In this document: positions 41,591 to 50,628 of the stretch, one piece after another
How positions within the stretch are numbered: position 1 is the first letter of the stretch
Layout of the letters: every line of letters starts with the position of its first letter
Assembly: GCA_965263035.1 (NCBI GenBank)
Contig: OZ253580.1
Location: 608,001-672,000, forward strand
Direction: 5' to 3'
Length of the DNA: 64,000 bases
Origin: Acidobacteriota bacterium
Lineage (GTDB): Bacteria; Acidobacteriota; UBA6911; RPQK01; JAJDTT01
Notes under the pieces: model-generated
What the model was told of the DNA's origin: nothing
The model's input: the letters and a program-made list of their open reading frames with translations, nothing else
Database searches by the model: none
Translations under genes and position numbers: made by a program

Positions 41591-42760
41591 TCAGGTCAAC
41601 GCGTCGAGAGCATCCAGGAGCCGAAGGATCTCCTCCTGAGTGTTGAAGGCAGCGACGGAAACTCGCAGCGACGGCCGCTCCGGCTGGTACTTGACCACGA
41701 TCCCCTGATCCAGGAGATCGTCTATGAGTCTCCGCAAACCGATTTCTTCCAGCTCTTGGAACTCCAGCGCCACGAGACCCGAGGCGAGCCCCGGCTTGGT
41801 GGGAGTGACGATCCGGATCCCGGGCCGGGCCTTCAGTTCATCGAAAAGAAACTGGACCAGTTCCTGTACGTACAGCTCGATCCGGTCGGGACCCAGTGCA
41901 TCCATGATCTCCAGCGCTCGGCCCAGCCCGATCCGCAGGGCATAGTTGTGGGTTCCCAATTCGGAGCGCAATGCGGCCGTGACTGGCGGAGGGGGATCCT
42001 CCGGCTTCAACCAGGCGCTGGAATCGGGGATGAAGTCGGGGCGAAACTCGGTGAGCCAATCCGGAGCCACCCAGAGAAACCCGACTCCCAGGGGTCCGAG
42101 CAGCCACTTGTGACCCGAGGCGATGTAGTAGTCGCAATCCAGGGCCGGAATCTCCACCGGAAACTGTCCCGCTGCCTGGGCACCGTCCAGCATCAGGGGA
42201 ACCCCTCTCGAACGGGCCAATCCCGCCGCTTCTCGGGCGGGCAGCCTCCGGCCGTCGAGGGTGGAAACCTGGCTGAGACAGACCAGCCGCACCGGACCTT
42301 CCAGCGCCGCCTCCAAACCGCTGAGGAGAGCGTCGTCCCCGAATTCCGCCGGGAAGGTTTTGACCACCACTCCCCGATGACGCTCCAGCGCCCGGCAGGC
42401 GTCTTGTGTGCTCACGTGCTCGGCCGAGGAGACGACGATTTCGTCTCCGGCCCGCCAGTCCACGCTGCGCAGGACGCGTTGCATGGCCTGGCTGGTGTTG
42501 GAGGTCCAGGCCAGATGCTCCGGCAGAACCCCCAGGATTTCGGCCAGTTGCGTACGGACCCGTCGCTCCTGATCGAGCAAAATACCGGTCACCCGCGGCG
42601 AGGCCGACCCGTGACGGCTCTGAAATGCCATCGTCTCGGCGACCACCTTGAGCACCGAATCGGGGGTCGGTCCGTAGGAGCCGGTCTGGAAATAGGCCAG
42701 CCGCCGGGTCAGGGGCAGATCTTCACGGAGTTGTCGGAAGCTCAGGGGGGCTTGGGTCAC
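41591..42760 (-). CDS. aminotransferase class V, PLP-dependent (copy 1, intact)
   Basis: AEHVS, LDGAQAAG, SGHKWLLGP, LRVS. Confidence 0.88.
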   Translation of the reverse strand: MTQAPLSFRQLREDLPLTRRLAYFQTGSYGPTPDSVLKVVAETMAFQSRHGSASPRVTGILLDQERRVRTQLAEILGVLPEHLAWTSNTSQAMQRVLRSVDWRAGDEIVVSSAEHVSTQDACRALERHRGVVVKTFPAEFGDDALLSGLEAALEGPVRLVCLSQVSTLDGRRLPAREAAGLARSRGVPLMLDGAQAAGQFPVEIPALDCDYYIASGHKWLLGPLGVGFLWVAPDWLTEFRPDFIPDSSAWLKPEDPPPPVTAALRSELGTHNYALRIGLGRALEIMDALGPDRIELYVQELVQFLFDELKARPGIRIVTPTKPGLASGLVALEFQELEEIGLRRLIDDLLDQGIVVKYQPERPSLRVSVAAFNTQEEILRLLDALDALT

Positions 42761-43899
42761 GCCGTTTCGACCCCGTCACCGCCTCGCGCCAGCGTGCGGA
42801 CCGCACCCCAGAGATTGAGACGCTCGATGCTGTCGGCCCGGTAGACGCCCACCTCGTCGGCCCCAGCCGCCAAGGCGGCATCAGCACCCTGCCGGAGCAG
42901 ATCCGGAGTCACCAGCTTGGGAGGTCCCCAGCAGACCAGTTGGGCCACCAGGGGGACCCGACCGGCGACGGCCCGGGCAGCCGCGCGCGTGTCCTCGATG
43001 ATGTGAGCCAGATTCCCGGTGAGGTGCCGGATGTGGATCTCGTCCACCAAGCCCTCACGGACCCACGTCGGCCAGTCCTGAAGACGCTTCCAGGTCGTCT
43101 CGGGATTGGATGCCACCGCCACCGTCAAGAACACTTTCCGCTCCAGGGCATCCAGCTGCCGCTTAAGCTCCCGCACGAAGCGGGTGACGTACCCGGCCCG
43201 GAACAGCGTCCACTCCCGATCATGATTGGGTCCGGCCATGGGGTCCCGGCCCGTCTCCCGGCGGTAGTCCTCGACGATGGCCCTCTCGTAGCCGTAGACC
43301 ATCACCCCGTGATCGTCCACCTGCCCGGGAACCGATTCGATCTGGAATTCCAGTTGGACACCGTCCACGGCGTAGTCCCGGGCCATTTCCAGAAACGGTC
43401 GCTGCTCGTGGAGGCGAGCCTCACGCGTCCCGTAACTGAGGACCACCGACCCCGAAACGTCGAAGCAGGTCTTTCCGTCCCGCCGCCTCATCCAGAGTTC
43501 GGGGTGATCGTTTGCGAACCGGGTCAGGCGCCATTCGGGCAGCCGGGTTCCGCTCTGGTAGTCGATGCCGGTCATTCCGGTGTAACCGACGGCGTTGTAG
43601 GGATGGACCTCGATTCTTCGCCGATGGGCCTCCTCCACCAGGAACGAGAGGGGGTCCCAGCCGTGAACGGAGTAGAAGCCGGGCACCACGGCGAGGATGT
43701 CTGCCGGATCGTGTCCTCCGCGGCCGTGTTCAAAGCGAAGGCACATCTCCCGGTCTGGGGTATAGCCGGGTATGAAACGGCTCACTCCGGCTTCGCCGCA
43801 TTGGTCCAGAAAGTCGCAGACCATTTCCCGGTTTCCCTCAGTGGGAAATACGCCGTTGTATCCTCCGATCCCTCCCCAGATAGTCAACCGTCTCGACAT
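42757..43899 (-). CDS. GHL10 (family 10 glycosyl hydrolase-like) TIM-barrel protein (copy 1, intact)
   Basis: WDPLSFLVEEAHRRRIEVHPY, YAVDGVQLE, QDWPTWVREGLVD. Confidence 0.72.
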   Translation of the reverse strand: MSRRLTIWGGIGGYNGVFPTEGNREMVCDFLDQCGEAGVSRFIPGYTPDREMCLRFEHGRGGHDPADILAVVPGFYSVHGWDPLSFLVEEAHRRRIEVHPYNAVGYTGMTGIDYQSGTRLPEWRLTRFANDHPELWMRRRDGKTCFDVSGSVVLSYGTREARLHEQRPFLEMARDYAVDGVQLEFQIESVPGQVDDHGVMVYGYERAIVEDYRRETGRDPMAGPNHDREWTLFRAGYVTRFVRELKRQLDALERKVFLTVAVASNPETTWKRLQDWPTWVREGLVDEIHIRHLTGNLAHIIEDTRAAARAVAGRVPLVAQLVCWGPPKLVTPDLLRQGADAALAAGADEVGVYRADSIERLNLWGAVRTLARGGDGVETA

Positions 43900-43959
43900 G
43901 GATCATTCTCCTGATCACCGGGCGTAACGCACCTTGAAGCCTTCGTCAGAAGGAACGAT

Positions 43960-45096
43960 TCGAGCAACTGCCCGCCGGGACAGTGAAAGCCGTCCCGCTC
44001 CTCGTCGTAACCAAAGGCCGCCTTCACCAGGCGACGGTCACTCTCGTCCAGGCCTCCCTTCCCTTGCTTCTCTCCACGGTCCGTCGCGATGTACGCTTCC
44101 AGCTGACGATCCGACGCCTCCTGCAGGTTGTTCCCCGAATAGTAGCCGTTGTCCAGGCTCAGCTTCTCCGGCAACCGACCGCTCGTCTCCTCCATCTCAT
44201 CCAAGGCTGGAGCCACTTCCTGGGCATCGTTCGCCTGCTGGCTCACGTGCTGACCCACGATCACCTGCGACTTGCCGTCCACGCTGATCTGTGCGTTGTA
44301 CGCGTACTCGAAGTCCCCTTTTTGCTTCATGATCCGCGCCTCGGGGTCCGCAAAGCTGATCTGCTTCTTGTCCTCGATCTTCTGACCCGGTCGAAGCTCC
44401 TGCTCCCGCGCTTCCAGCGCCTGCTTCATCTCCCGAACCTTCTTCAACCGCTGCTTCTTGTCGCGCAGGTCATCGGGCAGCTCATACCCGGTCCGCTCCT
44501 GGTAGACCCGATCCTCTTCCTCGTCGCAGCGGTCCGCCTGCCGGGTCAAGGCTTCGATCTCCTCGCACAATTCCTGCTCCTTCTCCTTCAGCCGTCCGTA
44601 GCTCATCGCCTTGTGCTTCGAGCTGTTCGCCTTGAACTTGGAGCCGTCCAGACTGACGTGTCCCAAACTCACCAGCCCCAGCCCCAGCCCCAGCCCCAGC
44701 GCCAGCGCCAACTGCACCGTCTGTTTGAAGCAAGCTCGGAAGAATTCCCCGCGGTCCTTCCGGAAATCACTCAACACCCGGAAGTTCGGGCAGTTCCTCC
44801 CCGCCAGGTACATGAAGCCGAGATCTTCCCGGCAGCGCTGCTCGATCTGCCGCGAGCTGAACACGCCGTGACTGTAGGCGTAGATCAGGATCGAAACGAT
44901 CTGGCGCGGCGCGTAGGCCCGCTGACCCCGGTGGCTGTACCGCGCCTCCACTTCCGACGTGTCCAGTGGCTCGAACAGTTCCTGATAGAGGAAACATTCG
45001 TGATCTTCCGGCAAGAGGTCGAACACGTTGGTCGCAAACAACTGACTCTGGCAATAGTCTTTTCGATAGGGCTTGAATCGGGGCGCCCTCCGACAT
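43960..45096 (-). pseudogene. IS1182-family transposase, C-terminus missing
   Basis: YAYSHGVFSSRQIE, PNFRVLSDFRK, LDGSKFKAN, DPEARIMK, YNAQISVD, DNGYYS; homology stops at CPGGQLL; ATG at 45096 appears out of frame with PRFKPY. Confidence 0.85.
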
Positions 45097-45553
45097 TCTC
45101 CTGATGATCTGTTCCCCGTATTCTAGGGAGTATCCATGTTGCAAGTGGTGGGTGCTAATCGGTGTTTCCATCCCGTGTCGTTAGTACGTGATCTGTCCGG
45201 TCCAAGAGGCACAGGGTTAGGAGGAGCGTTCTTCCGCCAGAGGTGAGGCGGAGATCGAGCTGGATCCAGCGGGCGCCGTGGAGGGGGCGATGAGTGGACG
45301 GATCAACTGGATCGAGGGGCCTGAGATCGTCGACGTCAGTCCTCCGGGAGGTCCGGATACGCCCTGGGGAGCGCCGGGTCAAGCCTCCGGCTCCTCCGCT
45401 TCGCCGCGGCCCTTCGGGTGACCCGGCGCTCCCCAGGGCGTGAAGAGCTTTCATGGCCGTAAGCAAGCTTCCGGCCAGACCTGACCGGAAGTTCGACAGA
45501 CGGCCATCAGGGGGTCCACACGCTCCCTTTCCTCACGGGGTCTCTCCGTGGCC

Positions 45554-46503
45554 TCAGAAGGTCGCTCGGGGCGCTACGGGCAACCAGGTGCGGTCCTGCC
45601 GGACGAGGGTGTTGGCCAGGACGATGAGCTTGCGCATGACGGCGACGAGGGCCACCTTGCCGGGCTTGCCGCGCTCTCTCAGCCTCCGGTATACACCTCG
45701 GCCAAGTCGGGGTTCCAGCGCAGGGCGGACACGGCCGGCATGTACAGGAGCCGTCGCGCCCGCGCCCGTCCGCCCCGGATGAAGGCCCGGCCCTGCCAAG
45801 TCCCGGACTCGCGGGGAACGGCGGCCAACCCGGCCAGACTGGCGGCGGCCTTGCCGCTGAGGGCGCCCAGCTCGGGCATCTCGGCCAGCAGACCGGCGGC
45901 GGTGGTGGCCGCGATCCCGGGAATGGAGGTGAGGATCTCCAACTTGCGGGCCCGCGCCTCGTCGGCCGCAATCAGCTGCTGCATTTTGCGGTCGATGGCG
46001 CGCAGGTGGCGCTCGAACAAGTTGATCTGGGTCTGGTTCTGCTGTTTGAGAAAGGGTTCGCGGAGCTGTTGGCGGCGGTTGAGCAGGGCCGTGCGCTGGC
46101 GGATCAGCGCGTCCCGGGCCGTCTGCAGTTCCTGGAGCCGGCGTTGCGTTTGGGACGGGGCCGGGGTCCGGCGCGGATCCAGGCTGGCGGCCATCTGGGC
46201 CAGTTTCCGAGCGTCTACGGCGTCGATCTTGGCACGGCTCCCGGTCGCCCGGGCGAAACACCGGGCCTGCCAGGGGTTCACCTTGGCCAACGGTAGCTTC
46301 GCTTTGGACAGTGCTTCCTCGAGGTCCCGGTGGTAGGGGCCGGTGGCCTCGTAGGCGACGCACTCGACCGGAGTTCCGATCCAATCGATCAGCGCCCGGA
46401 AGCCGGCCGGGTCATTGTCGAACTGGGCGGAATGGCCGTCGGCCAGCCGGTGCGCGTCCAGGTGCGCTTTCGAGATGTCGATGCCTACGGTATGCTGTTT
46501 CAT
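45554..46503 (-). pseudogene. IS110 recombinase/transposase, frameshifted near 45690
   Basis: GIDISK, YEATG, AKIDAVDA (DEDD), SIPGIA, ESG; tail ALVAVMRKL in another frame; GTGTATACCGG vs expected GTGTACCGG. Confidence 0.88.
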
Positions 46504-46675
46504 CTTTCCTGTCTCCTGTGCTTGTCATTCGGGCCTTGATGCCCTCGTATCCATTCAGGACATCGGGAAAGACGGTGGCCGACCTCACTCCCAAACGGTT
46601 CCTAACAGTCCGCGTCGGTACGGTCCAGCCACCGCCGTCCGGGTCGCTCATGAGCGACCCGGACGGGCCTATTTA
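46504..46675 (-). ncRNA. IS110 bridge RNA (predicted)
   Basis: 5' hairpin 46635-46666, then target guides ACCGACGC and GGGAG, then donor guides ATGGATAC and GACAAG, all matching the element junctions; RNA ends approximate. Confidence 0.82.
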
Positions 46676-46717
46676 AACAGACAAGCGTCGGTGACGGCTC
46701 CATTCTCGGACAGGCTC

Positions 46718-47629
46718 CTAGACAGTACTGATGTGAGGATTTTTCCCTCGCTTGTTCCCCTGGCAGATCGCCTCGATAGCGTCTGTACGCCAACATAGGC
46801 CCAGCGCTGCTTCGCTTGCGTTTGCCCCGGCGCGGCCGCTGTAACAGCCGACAAACTGCGTGCCTTGGCTCCCCCAAAGTGCTAAGTCTTTCCTTTTCCA
46901 AAACCCTGGTTCGTTTGGGTCGACTTCCCGGTAAGGATGTTGCATATCCCACGCACCATGATAGCGAGCAAACACGGGAGACCCCGACATGCCAGCTCGT
47001 GTCAGTGTGTCTATGAAGAACGCCGGTATGCGGCGGCCGCCTTTGAGCCCACCGTAACCCGACAACCTGCCGCCAAGTGTGACATTGAAATGCGGCTCCG
47101 AAGCGATATACCCAGACTTCCATAACGGCAGCCCGAAGCCAACGCTGAGCGAGCGCGGAAAGCCGATCACGAAGACAGTAGATCCAGGCACCATGGGTAT
47201 ATTGTCCTTGCTTATGAGATTTGCCGCATTGTGCATGAAATCTGGACATGAAGCCGGTCTTGCCATGGGGATGGCAACCACATCACATAATGCGCTGAGT
47301 TCCGGATGTTCAAACCACACTGGCTGTTCTCCGCGATAGAGTCGTATGGGGTACGGTGCGATTCCAAACGTGCCGCGTTGTCGGTCACCAACTGCGTACG
47401 AGGACAATTTGGCCGCCAGACTAAAAGGCTCAATGAACGGGTGGACCAACGGTTGGCGGGTCAGAAAGTGACGACCGCTGACGACGTGCCAATTGGTGAT
47501 GATGAACCACCTGCTGTCCATTTCGAAGAAAAAGGCGCTGGCAGCGGAAAGGACAGTCCCATCTTGACCGCATATCAGCAGCTGAAATGGGCATTGGGAA
47601 AAGGTGCTCCTGATACCATGCTCTGGCAC
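46718..47629 (-). CDS. trypsin-like serine protease domain protein
   Basis: ITNWHVV, CDVVAI, VFVIGFP, GMSGSPV triad motifs. Confidence 0.75.
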   Translation of the reverse strand: MPEHGIRSTFSQCPFQLLICGQDGTVLSAASAFFFEMDSRWFIITNWHVVSGRHFLTRQPLVHPFIEPFSLAAKLSSYAVGDRQRGTFGIAPYPIRLYRGEQPVWFEHPELSALCDVVAIPMARPASCPDFMHNAANLISKDNIPMVPGSTVFVIGFPRSLSVGFGLPLWKSGYIASEPHFNVTLGGRLSGYGGLKGGRRIPAFFIDTLTRAGMSGSPVFARYHGAWDMQHPYREVDPNEPGFWKRKDLALWGSQGTQFVGCYSGRAGANASEAALGLCWRTDAIEAICQGNKRGKNPHISTV

Positions 47630-47928
47630 GAGTTGTACGACCTCCGCTAGCAGCGTTCATCCATAAGTCTAACGTAAGCTGGGCTACATTGTGCTTAGAT
47701 TTACCTTGATGGGTTTCCGAATTCTAGGGAACTGAGGAGAATCTAATCGAGGCATCTGTTCGGATGACCGTTTGTGAAGCGCCTACTCACCGAGTATGAA
47801 ACCCTTGAGGACGATGCGGGCCGATCTGAAGTGTACTCGGAGAACTGCAACCAGAGGCGGATGCACTGCAGCCGATTGCTAGACTGTCGAAATCATGCGA
47901 TCATCGGAGATTCGAAAAGGAGACGACG

Positions 47929-48201
47929 ATGGAGTTCGAGGAGCTTTCCAAGAAATTGAGTGATACCTACTCTTTGGGTTACGGGGATCGGGACAAGGCG
48001 CTCGGAGACTTTGGTCGGAAGTACAGTGGCGATCTAGTGGCCATGGAGGAGCAGAACCATACGATAGAGGACATTCTGGAGGCGGCACATATAGGGTCTC
48101 CGGTGTACTGGGCGAAGGCAATTAGACAGGGCATGGATGTCCAGGACCGTTTGCGAATCCTTGAACATCGCGTAGGAGAAATGAATCGGGAGAGCGGTTG
48201 A
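47929..48201 (+). CDS. small hypothetical protein (HTH-like)
   Basis: AGGAG RBS; FGRKY..I..ILEAA pattern recalls small HTH-like proteins of restriction islands. Confidence 0.55.
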   Translation: MEFEELSKKLSDTYSLGYGDRDKALGDFGRKYSGDLVAMEEQNHTIEDILEAAHIGSPVYWAKAIRQGMDVQDRLRILEHRVGEMNRESG

Positions 48202-48337: not shown

Positions 48338-49205
48338 CTAGTGCGAACATGATCGCCAGCGCTCGGCCCAAACCGATCCGGAGGGCGTAGTTGTGGGTCC
48401 CCAGTTCGGAACGCAAGGCGGCCGTGACCGGCGGTGGAGGATCTCCGGGTTTCAACCAGGTGCTGGCATCGGGGATGTAGTCGGGGCGAAACCCGGCGAG
48501 CCGATCCGGCGACACCCAGAGAAACCCGACTCCCAGGGGTCCGAGCAGCCACTTGTGACCCGAGGCGATGTAGTAGTCGCAACCGAGGGCCGGAATCTCC
48601 ACCGGATACTGCCCGACGGCCTGGGCCCCGTCCAGCATCAAGGGAACTCCCCTTTCCCGGGCCAAGCGCGCCGCTTCCCGGGCGGGCAGCCTCCGGCCGT
48701 CGAGGTTGGAAACTTGGCTGAGACAGACCATCCGTGCCCGACCCTTCAGCATCGTCTCCAGGCCGCTGAGCAGAGCGTCGTCCCCTTCTTCCGCCGCGAA
48801 GGTCCAGATCACCACCCCCCGGTGCCGCTCCAGCGCCCGGCAGGCGTCCTGTGTGCTGACGTGCTCGGCCGAGGAGACCAGGATCTCGTCTCCGGGCTGC
48901 CAGTCGACGCTCCGCAGGACCCGCTGCATGGCCTGGCTGGTGTTGGAAGTCCAGGCCAGTTGCTCCGGCTGGGTTCCAAGGAAGTCGGCCAGTTGATGCC
49001 GGACCCGATGCTCCTGATCCAGCAGCACGCCCGTCATCCGCGGAGAGGCCGACCCGTAGCGGCTTTGATAGGCCATCCTCTCGGCGACCACCTTCAGCAC
49101 CGAATCGGGAGTCGGCCCGTAGGAGCCGGTCTGGAAATAGGACAGCCTCCGAATCAGGGGCAGATCTTCGCGGAGTTGGCGGAAGCTTATGGAGGCTAGT
49201 GTCAC
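48338..49205 (-). pseudogene. aminotransferase class V (copy 2), truncated at MITE
   Basis: Close paralog of 41591-42760 up to GRALAIMFALG, then MITE; last ~80 aa absent. Confidence 0.88.
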
Positions 49206-50347
49206 TCCGTTTCCACCCCGGTGTCGCCACCGCGAGCCAAGGCGCCGACCGCGCTCCACAGATTCAGCCGCTCGATGCTGTCGGCGCGATAGACACCCGC
49301 CTCGTCGGCGCCGGCAGCCAGGGCGGCATCAGCTCCCTGCCGGAGCAGATCCGGAGTCACCAGCTTGGGCGGTCCCCAGCAGACCAGTTGGGCCACAAGG
49401 GGGACCCGGCCGGCGACGGCCCGGGCAGCCATCCGCGTGTCCTCGAAGATGTGGGCCAGATTCCCGGTGAGATGACGGATGTGAATCTCGTCCACCAGAC
49501 CCTCCCGGACCCAGGCCGGCCAGTCCTGAAGGCGCTTCCAGGCCGTCTCCGGATTGGATGCCACCGCCACCGTCAAGGAAACTTTCCGCTGCAGGGCATC
49601 CAGCTGCCGCCTCAGCTCCCGCACAAAGCGGGTGACGTATACGGCCCGGAACAGCGTCCACTCCTGATCATGATTGGGTACCGCCATGGGGTCCCGGCCC
49701 GTCTCCCGGCGGTAGCCCTCGACGATGGCCGTCTCGTAACCGTAGACCATCACCCCATGATCGTCCACCTGCCCGGGAACCGATTCGATCTGAAATTCCA
49801 GTTGGACGCCGTCCACGTCGTAGTCCCGGGCCATCCGCAGAAACGGCCGCTGCTCGTGGAGGCGAGCGTCGCGTGTCCCGTAGCTGAGGACCACCGACCC
49901 CGAAACGTCGAACGACGTCATGCCGTCTTGGCGCCGCATCCAGAGCTCGGGGTGATCGTTTGCGAACCGGGTCAGGCGCCATTCGGGCAGCCGGGTGCCG
50001 CTCTGTTAGTCGATGCCGGTCATTCCCGTGTAACCCACGGCGTTGTAGGGATGGATCTCGATCCCTCTTCGATGAGCCTCCTCCACCAGAAACGAGAGGG
50101 GGTCCCAGTCGTGAACGGAGTAGAAGCCGGGCACCACGGCGAGAACGTCCGTCGGATCGTGTCCGCCGCGGCCGTGGTCAAAAAGAAAGCACATCTCCCG
50201 GCCCGGGGTATAGCCGGGAATGAAACGGCTGACTCCGGCTCCGGCGCACCGATCCAGAAAGTCGCAGACCATCTCCCGGTTCCCTTCCGTGGGAAACACG
50301 CCGTTGTTTCCTCCGATGCCACCCCAGATGGTGAGCCGTCTCGACAT
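49202..50347 (-). pseudogene. GHL10-like protein (copy 2), nonsense mutation
   Basis: Close paralog of 42757-43899; TAC to TAA at 50006-50008 (GIDY to GID*). Confidence 0.88.
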
Positions 50348-50628
50348 GGGCCTGTCTCCTGATCACCGAGCGGTCAGACGCTGGAAATCCCGGTTACGGC
50401 GACCGATTCGCATGAGGCGAGCCATGATGACAGCCGACAACAGACTCTGCCAGAGACGGTCTGGAAACTGCGGTCGTCCGGGCCAGCTATATTCGCAGGA
50501 TCGTACCGTGCCACGGATAATTGGCGGAAAGTGGCCCTGGGACTGGCATGGATAGCAGTTCGCAAATCCAGCATTCGTACGACACCAAGAGGAGAAGCGA
50601 ATTTCAAATCATAGGCATTTACAAGTAG

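Follow-up and report, generated by a model that had tools for sequence, protein, structure and literature searches.

An IS621-like element of an uncultured Acidobacteriota bacterium with a readable bridge RNA and a probable one-base redirection from a REP-like repeat to IS1182

Described bridge RNA systems and the present locus

Bridge RNAs have been known since 2024, and large surveys have shown that guide and target covary between distant orthologues. For the insertion sequence (IS) IS621, the available text of Durrant et al. (2024, PMC11208160) describes a left target guide that pairs with the bottom strand, and so equals the top strand, and a 3' side of the loop that pairs with the top strand over 4–7 nucleotides (nt), with the core included in every pairing. 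The corresponding text of Hiraizumi et al. (2024, PMC11208158) places the target loop (nt 34–98) before the donor loop (nt 110–177) and describes two handshake bases 3' of each right guide, which pair with positions 6–7 of the other DNA after exchange. According to the same sources, the circular form of IS621 rebuilds a promoter across its joined ends (PMC11208160; PMC11208158). Here we analyze an IS110-family element located at 45129–46683 of a 64,000-nt window, which corresponds to positions 608,001–672,000 of the single 6.2-Mb contig of an uncultured Acidobacteriota bacterium. The features described below lie on the minus strand, and coordinates are those of the window unless a genome position is given. 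We consider it very probable that this element is IS621-like, that its bridge RNA can be read, and that one base changed in a guide shifted a sub-lineage from a repetitive extragenic palindromic (REP)-like repeat to the end of another mobile element, IS1182.

The likeness to IS621 is extensive. It includes a homologous recombinase, an RNA in the left end with the order 5' hairpin, target loop and donor loop, 3' guides that are the reverse complement of core plus right half-site, the core CT itself, a handshake base after each right guide, a REP-like ancestral target, and a −35-like hexamer in the right end that circularization would join to a −10-like hexamer in the left end. Unlike IS621, this element is known from sequence alone and from an uncultured Acidobacteriota host, its left guides pair with the first core base only, its right target guide consists of the core plus three bases, the inner stem of its target loop is weak, and one of its sub-lineages is aimed at an IS1182 end instead of a REP. 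The best match among solved structures is ISCro4 (9t56), which shares the GID, EAT, KTDAVDA and ESG motifs in a comparison made by protein sequence only.

Other described systems share single traits with this locus. IS4321/IS5075 are likewise insertion sequences with a DEDD recombinase whose target lies in the end of another transposable element, in their case of the Tn21 family. According to the descriptions available, however, they belong to the IS1111 type, in which the RNA lies downstream, the guides come in the reverse order and there are subterminal repeats, and they insert inside a Tn3-family inverted repeat, whereas the target described here lies 17 base pairs (bp) inward of the IS1182 repeat. 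The natural redirection pairs ISEc11/ISXne4 and ISEc21/ISMch6, as presented in the available text of Siddiquee et al. (2024, PMC11187229), are related elements in which guide differences are matched by differences in insertion site. Those pairs have about 72% protein identity, reside in different hosts and changed at many guide positions, whereas the sub-lineages of this study are about 96–97% identical in DNA, share one genome and differ at one left-guide base. ISPpu9 and ISPpu10 of Pseudomonas putida, as far as their available descriptions go, are IS110-family elements in repetitive extragenic palindromic or other intergenic repeats and in this resemble the majority of the copies described below, with another host and other targets. 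No IS110-type bridge element aimed at IS1182 was found in a literature search that did not extend to the guide and target catalogues of PMC11208160 and PMC11187229, which might list this element or its relatives; the preprint 10.64898/2026.08.31.748434 contains the term IS1182 once, in a sentence outside this search.

One guide base and two target classes

The boundaries of the element were set with 13 aligned copies that have differing flanks, and with uninterrupted target sites. They give a length of 1555 bp, from a left end beginning TGTCT to a right end finishing in ATGGATA plus one CT core, so that the minus strand reads ...GTCACCGACG-CT-[TGTCT...ATGGATA-CT]-CCCTAGAAT or, at greater length, ...GTCACCGACG-CT-TGTCTGTTTAAAT ... 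CACTTGCAACATGGATA-CT-CCCTAGAAT... Both the pre-insertion target ACCGACG-CT-CCCTA and the circle junction ATGGATA-CT-TGTCT, reconstructed in an earlier note on this DNA, were reproduced from the flanks. The left target ACCGACG (46692–46686) and the core CT (46685–46684), together 46684–46692, are IS1182 and not IS110 sequence, and in uninterrupted IS1182 ends (genome positions 1954209 and 4173832) they run straight into CCC. The right target CCCTA (45124–45128) leads into the −10-like hexamer TAGAAT (45125–45120); other IS1182 copies have CCCTAAAAT at the right-target position.

The earlier note had proposed a search for other copies of this IS110 in the genome, and 13 copies with a left end were found, at insertion sites predicted by their own guides. 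Nine are full-length (1561–1564 bp, measured from the start coordinate used in the earlier note), three have a right-end deletion of 76–78 bp and one is truncated at 1132 bp. Additional remnants are a right end at genome 4,205,113–4,205,364 and a 34-bp left end near 5,976,163. The 12 copies that kept both ends all start with CT-TGTCT and finish with ATGGATA-CT, the thirteenth having a left end only. As is typical of what defines the IS110 family, terminal inverted repeats are absent and insertion is sequence-specific, on a short core that flanks the element.

The flanks of the 13 copies fall into two target classes, and so do their guides. Three copies (the window copy and those at genome 3,696,985 and 1,125,863) have the left guide ACCGACGC, hereafter the A-guide, and all three lie inside IS1182 ends with ACCGACG-CT on the left and CCC on the right. 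The remaining ten have the left guide ACCGCCGC (the C-guide) and are flanked by ACCGCCG-CT in nine cases and by GCCGCCG-CT in one; eight of these ten flanks form the 3' arm of a short hairpin that is REP-like (tcggcgg-n3-gaaa-ccgccg-CT-cc). The genome contains 91 occurrences of ACCGCCGCTCC, with 11.9 expected. The fifth base of the guide, A in three copies and C in ten, agrees with the flank in 13 of 13, and guide base and target base change together without exception. Copies in sites unrelated to their guides, which the earlier note had named as evidence to the contrary, did not appear: the left targets of 3/3 A-guide and 10/10 C-guide copies are as predicted. On the right side, GGGAG stands opposite CT-CCC in seven of nine copies and opposite CT-CCT, through a G-T wobble, in two, and the lone copy with AGGAG is opposite CT-CCT.

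An element with ACCGCCGC might also have reached IS1182 first, through a tolerated mismatch or half-match, the C-to-A change coming later and having no causal part. The IS1182 and REP sites differ at only one of seven left-target positions, and one copy does tolerate a mismatch at left-target position 1. In addition, the copy at 2.496 Mb, one of three in which GCAG replaces GGAG in the right target guide, is in a site that matches its left half only (ACCGCCG-CT-CTCGAG) and resembles the half-match insertions described in the available text of preprint 10.64898/2026.08.31.748434. However, this order of events needs a coincidence, namely a fixed mutation that happens to restore a perfect match. 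It is also at odds with the distribution of copies, as 0/10 C-guide copies are in IS1182 ends despite suitable ends, whereas 3/3 A-guide copies are, in hosts that have diverged. We regard it as highly improbable, and a change of guide that preceded the change of site as the better explanation.

The direction and INDEPENDENCE of the retargeting follow from its distribution. A search of 15 genomes of the family gave 20 target loops of this type; three have A at guide position 5, all in this genome, and the other 17 have C. A maximum-likelihood tree groups the three A copies in a single clade (support 92/93). This clade branches from within the C-guide copies of this genome and G007, the copies of G003 and G004 falling outside. 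Because the A clade is nested among C-guide copies and A was seen only in this genome among the 15, the A-guide is derived and arose once. The sequence ACCGACG-CT was found in IS1182 ends of relatives at six places in four genomes of the genus, none of which has an A-guide; the target therefore existed before the guide. The element family is aimed mainly at the REP-like repeat here, and only one derived sub-lineage at IS1182. The proposal of the earlier note, an RNA-guided parasite of IS1182, would concern this A-guide sub-lineage alone, with its three of three copies in IS1182 ends.

The three A-guide copies of IS110 are 98.6–99.1% identical to each other, whereas the body of the window's IS1182 is 89.6–89.9% identical to the other two hosts. 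A fourth host at 4.205 Mb, which bears a right-end remnant of IS110 at the same site, represents a third host type and is 95.1% identical to the window's IS1182. The host sequences diverge within 10 nt of the junction. Had IS1182 and IS110 spread together as one composite, both parts would have diverged to the same degree; the sequences therefore point to at least two separate insertions at the IS1182 site, and probably three. This bears on hitch-hiking, that is, a single insertion, RNA-guided or accidental, followed by multiplication of an IS1182::IS110 composite by IS1182 transposition or duplication, in which case the three copies would carry no information on repeated targeting. Two of the hosts would fit it: those at 3.695 Mb and 1.127 Mb are 98.6% identical, approximately as their IS110 inserts (98.8%), and could stem from one event. 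Flanks have also been shuffled. The 37-nt left fragment of IS1182 at the 1.125-Mb copy (genome 1,125,832–1,125,871) is identical to that of the window (46684–46721), and the right-hand IS1182 body of the same copy matches the 3.695-Mb copy (98.6%). Such mixing of left and right flank types between loci indicates that recombination between copies occurred too, the flanks presumably having been exchanged by homologous recombination between IS110 copies. Hitch-hiking nevertheless leaves unexplained why the guide base matches the new site, and given the unequal divergence we find it quite improbable as an account of all three copies. Independent insertion directed by the A-guide remains the favored interpretation.

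Agreement between guide and flank extends to relatives. In genomes of the same genus, the guide GUCGCCGCU is found in GTCGCCG-CT in three of four copies, with one mismatch in the fourth, and both copies with ACCGCCGC are in ACCGCCG-CT. Among less closely related elements, those of G006 and G007 have the guide GUAUGC in GGTATG-CT, and that of G023 has UGGUCGCU in GGGTCG-CT. In Alphaproteobacteria, UCGUGUCU is found in TCGTGT-CT and UUGUGUCU in TTGTGT-CT; these elements have 40–44% protein identity and the same donor ends, ATGGATA-CT-TGTCT. Six guide variants were tallied, each matching its own flank. One alphaproteobacterial metagenome-assembled genome (contigs L041–L087) holds 41 of the 57 loci returned for the related IS110 element.

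Bridge RNA, recombinase and expression

The 180-nt non-coding end upstream of the recombinase folds into a 5' hairpin and two stem-closed internal loops, the first matching the target and the second the joined donor ends, with the strand rule of IS621, in this genome and in relatives. As the earlier note had stated, the order of motifs, their strand polarity and the CT core are those published for IS621, with the target loop before the donor loop. The 5' stem-loop (46635–46666) is a perfect 32-nt palindrome, which also appears as a self-match; it forms helix 1, in which three of four scored pairs have compensatory changes. The target-binding loop domain (46574–46633, 60 nt) is closed by the outer stem GGUGGCUGGACC / GGUCGGCCACC. 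This stem is helix 2, with 13 pairs, 96.2% paired, three of them with compensatory changes. The domain carries the left target guide ACCGACGC (46612–46619), equal to the left target plus the first core base, and the right target guide (46586–46592), in which GGGAG (46592–46588), the reverse complement of CT-CCC, is followed by the handshake bases UG (46587–46586). The donor-binding loop domain (46510–46562) has the outer stem UGUCCUG / CAGGA(GA)CA and the inner stem-loop GGGC-AUCAAG-GCCC (46544–46531). Its helices 3 and 4 are each 100% paired, with one and two compensatory pairs, and minimum-free-energy folds agree. The left donor guide ATGGATAC (46547–46554) equals the left donor ATGGATA plus C and is conserved together with the right end in 13/13 copies. 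The right donor guide (46519–46526) consists of GACAAG (46526–46521), the reverse complement of CT-TGTC, and the handshake bases CA (46520–46519). The palindrome and the four motifs are where the earlier note had placed them.

These motifs and this fold are unlikely to arise by chance. When the 180-nt left end was shuffled 200,000 times, 0.42% of the shuffled sequences contained ACCGACGC, 0.18% ATGGATAC, 0.0025% both 8-mers and none all four motifs. The left-end fold has z = −5.65 relative to shuffled controls. Folding from nt 21 gave three domains in every variant (the 5' hairpin, the 60-nt target domain and the donor domain), the donor guides sitting on either side of the internal loop of the donor domain. 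Fourteen sequences from three groups yielded a consensus fold with 24 pairs, nine of which show compensatory changes; 95.5% of its cells are paired, compared to 32–52% when partners were slid by 1–3 columns, and the observed covariation score was reached by 0/500 shuffles. All four guides are in unpaired stretches enclosed by conserved stems of this consensus. The earlier note had asked whether the guides fall in internal loops, and they do. When the whole left end was folded including the flank, the right donor guide paired with the first bases of the element itself. We disregarded this pairing, a built-in consequence of that guide being complementary to that end.

The handshake bases provide an additional point of agreement. 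The U after GGGAG, invariant in 14/14 rows, can pair with donor position 7 (A). The base after GACAAG follows target position 7: in the Acidobacteriota rows it is C and can pair with the G found there, and in the two rows from Alphaproteobacteria (L041 and L048) it is A, with T at the target position. The first handshake base therefore fits both loops and covaries with the target, C with G and A with T.

It could be argued that no RNA is involved, and that the matches between flank and left end are DNA-level repeats, either protein-binding sites or a by-product of end formation. The RNA is a prediction, and none of the 4227 Rfam families searched over 44000–48000 at E up to 10 was a bridge-RNA family with a match. 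The Rfam matches obtained were chance microRNA-like or snoRNA-like ones, on hairpins only. However, the matches follow the polarity, order and loop placement of the IS621 bridge RNA, and the stems keep pairing through compensatory changes, which speaks for selection on RNA or single-strand structure. The recombinase is homologous to proteins solved with bridge RNA, and contigs from RNA libraries cover the region, which is a weak hint. We give next to no credence to a DNA-only origin of the matches.

The recombinase gene (45554–46503) is broken in the window copy. Its frame is open from 46503 to 45679 (274 amino acids), and a 2-bp insertion at 45690–45689, the frameshift implied by the earlier note, moves the last approximately 43 codons to another frame that ends at 45554. 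The 2 bp are missing from the other copies and from contigs of all four public sequencing runs compared. An intact recombinase is present in 10/13 copies (315 amino acids in nine, 314 in one), and two other copies have an early frameshift in common. The family is assigned by Pfam matches to PF01548 (E 1.4e-21) and PF02371 (E 6.9e-19) and 172.7 bits (cutoff 140) to NCBIfam NF033542, 'IS110 family RNA-guided transposase'. An intact sister copy searched against the PDB matched IS621 (8wt6) with E 4.6e-32 and ISCro4 (9t56) with E 2.7e-35, and aligns over residues 3–299 to these transposases of solved bridge-RNA complexes. The ends of the window copy are intact, its left end being identical to that of an intact sister copy. 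The window copy is probably non-autonomous; since its recombinase is frameshifted, it would now move only with recombinase supplied by other copies.

The non-coding right end (45131–45553) comprises a 76-bp palindromic stretch, the hexamer TTGCAA (45144–45139) and the left donor ATGGATA (45137–45131). The palindromic stretch (about 45363–45438) is present in the window copy and in full-length C-guide copies, and is missing from the other two A-guide copies and from the 2.496-Mb copy. Parts of the right end (query 1182–1350) match several unrelated loci at 72–94%. These observations suggest a small repeat nested in the right end of IS110, and exchange between sub-lineages. The remnant at genome 4,205,113–4,205,530, a 252-bp right end with an inverted 84-bp right-end fragment (80% identity), surrounds the palindromic stretch and is joined to an IS1182 body without a left end. 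This arrangement suggests that copies have rearranged with one another.

Circularization had been proposed in the earlier note to create a junction promoter. By hand count, TTGCAA and the TTAAAT of the left end (46676–46671) would indeed be 17 nt apart, and they match the consensus at 8 of 12 positions. A promoter rebuilt at the circle junction is compatible with these data and unproven. Twenty public runs with part of the stretch were listed, four of them recorded as RNA and two of those labelled sponge metagenome. Both guide variants are present in runs X2 and X15, and X15 has an RNA-library contig identical to the A-guide target loop. Right ends joined to REP-like sequence also appear in the run contigs, and one RNA-library contig has a joint that skips 45362–45439. 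Loose ends at 46684 (X1) and 45129 (X2) read like uninterrupted IS1182 ends and may stem from other IS1182 loci; the contigs of the four runs compared list no empty site at this very locus. In X15, two 81-nt contigs over 46564–46644 have word depths of 954 and 810, versus 65 over the coding region. As contig depth cannot rank parts of a gene and RNA libraries may hold DNA, we take this difference as a hint of expression at most.

Together, these elements can be arranged into a mechanism. The left end would encode a bridge RNA of about 170 nt that starts with the 5' hairpin and continues with the loops for target and donor. Through AUGGAUAC and GACAAG, the donor loop would recognize the joined ends of the element, ATGGATA-CT-TGTCT. 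The ancestral guide ACCGCCGC, also that of the majority, would direct the element to the REP-like hairpin repeat, and one replacement of C by A at position 5 of this guide then probably founded the three-copy sub-lineage, whose guide matches ACCGACG-CT-CCC, 37 bp inside the left end of IS1182 and between its terminal repeat and the transposase start codon. This sub-lineage would have inserted there independently at least twice and probably three times.

Several observations weigh against this interpretation. Copies within one genome are related, so that 13/13 agreement does not amount to 13 fully independent trials, and GCAG mismatches the right flank in both of the copies that still have a right end. 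Insertions are missing from five exact ACCGACGCTCCC sites, of which two are in IS1182 ends and three elsewhere. In the target loop, the inner stem is weak and changes from variant to variant without a version common to all, whereas relatives L093, L115 and L094 have a clear 5-bp stem. The left target and left donor guides read C-G, whereas IS621-type guides, and relatives L031, L035, L094 and L041, read C-U. Ending in C-G, the left guides leave the second core base unpaired; the right guides end in AG and cover the full CT core. The recombinase of the window copy is frameshifted. The 8/12 match of TTGCAA and TTAAAT is below the threshold of the promoter tool, and a scan of the integrated copy scored no sigma-70-like promoter. 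Finally, the four runs compared with the region consist of contigs, which show neither transcript ends nor levels, and no circle-junction joint was listed among them.

The interrupted IS1182 and the meaning of the probable retargeting

The host of the window copy belongs to the IS1182 family, as the earlier note had proposed: it scores 281.4 bits (cutoff 270) with NCBIfam transpos_IS1182 (NF033551) over model positions 13–379 of 488, and its transposase has DUF772 and DDE_Tnp_1 domains. Its left 36 bp (46686–46721) begin with the 19-bp terminal inverted repeat CTAGGAGCCTGTCCGAGAA (46721–46703), defined by comparing left and right ends of four intact 1779-bp copies. Seventeen bases separate the inner edge of this repeat from the CT core, in agreement with the distance given earlier. 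The core occupies IS1182 positions 37–38, about 40 nt upstream of the start codon of other copies as read by hand. The body (43963–45128) is 3'-truncated at about 43963, where the alignment stops, and the start codon of other copies reads AGG in the window copy (also read by hand). Truncated and with an AGG start, this IS1182 copy is already dead.

A role of TAGAAT as the −10 box of the transposase had also been considered. The hexamer exists at the position given above, and a scan of the left end of intact IS1182 scored no sigma-70-like site; since no promoter was scored, TAGAAT stays a bare hexamer. For the same reason, silencing by the insertion, and any effect of it on IS1182 expression, can only be inferred.

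Uninterrupted IS1182 ends with the reconstructed target, for which a search had been suggested, do exist: ACCGACGCTCCC is present in two IS1182 ends of this genome, those of a divergent copy at 1,954,209 and of a copy at 4,173,832. Four apparently young copies, 99–100% identical, carry ACCGAAG-CT-CCT, which mismatches the guide, and are unoccupied. Occupancy is thus 3/5 for ACCGACG ends and 0/4 for ACCGAAG ends, a difference that is not significant alone (hand-calculated Fisher p ~0.12). A sixth copy, which has lost its left end, bears an IS110 right-end remnant at the same site. The 4,173,832 copy is split 15 bp past the target by an unrelated IS of about 1.76 kb (genome 4,172,064–4,173,823), which has 7–8 copies of 98.6–99.6% identity. 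Two different elements have thus struck the same 30-bp stretch of IS1182 ends.

These data invite a wider proposal, in which the A-guide sub-lineage would be an RNA-guided hyperparasite that disables IS1182 copies, and IS1182 would escape by target mutation in an arms race. As part of the same proposal, insertion between the terminal repeat and the start codon would uncouple the transposase from upstream signals. It fits the escape that the unoccupied ACCGAAG-CT-CCT copies are the only IS1182 lineage that looks recently active. We put the arms race forward tentatively, as a possible but rather unlikely extension of the one-base retargeting described above.

The surroundings of IS1182 contain other repeats. 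A miniature inverted-repeat transposable element (MITE)-like repeat of about 167 bp, with ends CTAGGAGTCTGCGCGG...CCGCGCAGGCTCCTAG, gave more than 150 BLAST hits at 90–99% identity (not tallied). Examples are at genome 5,428,831–5,428,996 and 104,493–104,659, and it also adjoins the IS1182 copy at 144,279–146,059 (L118). Over about its first 10 bases it agrees with the terminal repeat of IS1182. That terminal repeat, in its full 19 bp, is present 51 times, far above the number of IS1182 copies, often solo and abutting the MITE. In the window, a gene for a 303-aa trypsin-like peptidase (PF13365; 46718–47629, minus strand) has a stop codon that overlaps the first bases of IS1182. A 2-kb direct duplicate (41903–43924 and 48348–50372, 87.8% identity) carries a GHL10-like glycoside hydrolase gene, and the truncated end of IS1182 (43963) is 39 bp from the edge of one of the duplicates.

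What this locus adds to the known covariation of guides and targets is a very clean example, found in nature, of retargeting by a single nucleotide: the two sub-lineages reside in one genome and are about 96–97% identical, and each is found only at the site that its own guide predicts. It is a natural counterpart of laboratory reprogramming, and shows that a new target can be a very small step away. With two guides, two targets and intact natural recombinases, the locus also offers a ready-made 2×2 system. For annotation, the practical consequence is that the left end of an IS110 copy discloses its target, and that reading it can separate sub-lineages that protein similarity would lump together. 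Because the new target is in the end of another IS, the locus may bear on competition between mobile elements. If the arms race were true, guide and target would be set against each other between two transposons within one genome, and the locus would illustrate how, in nature, a new niche can be opened by changing a single base of a bridge RNA.

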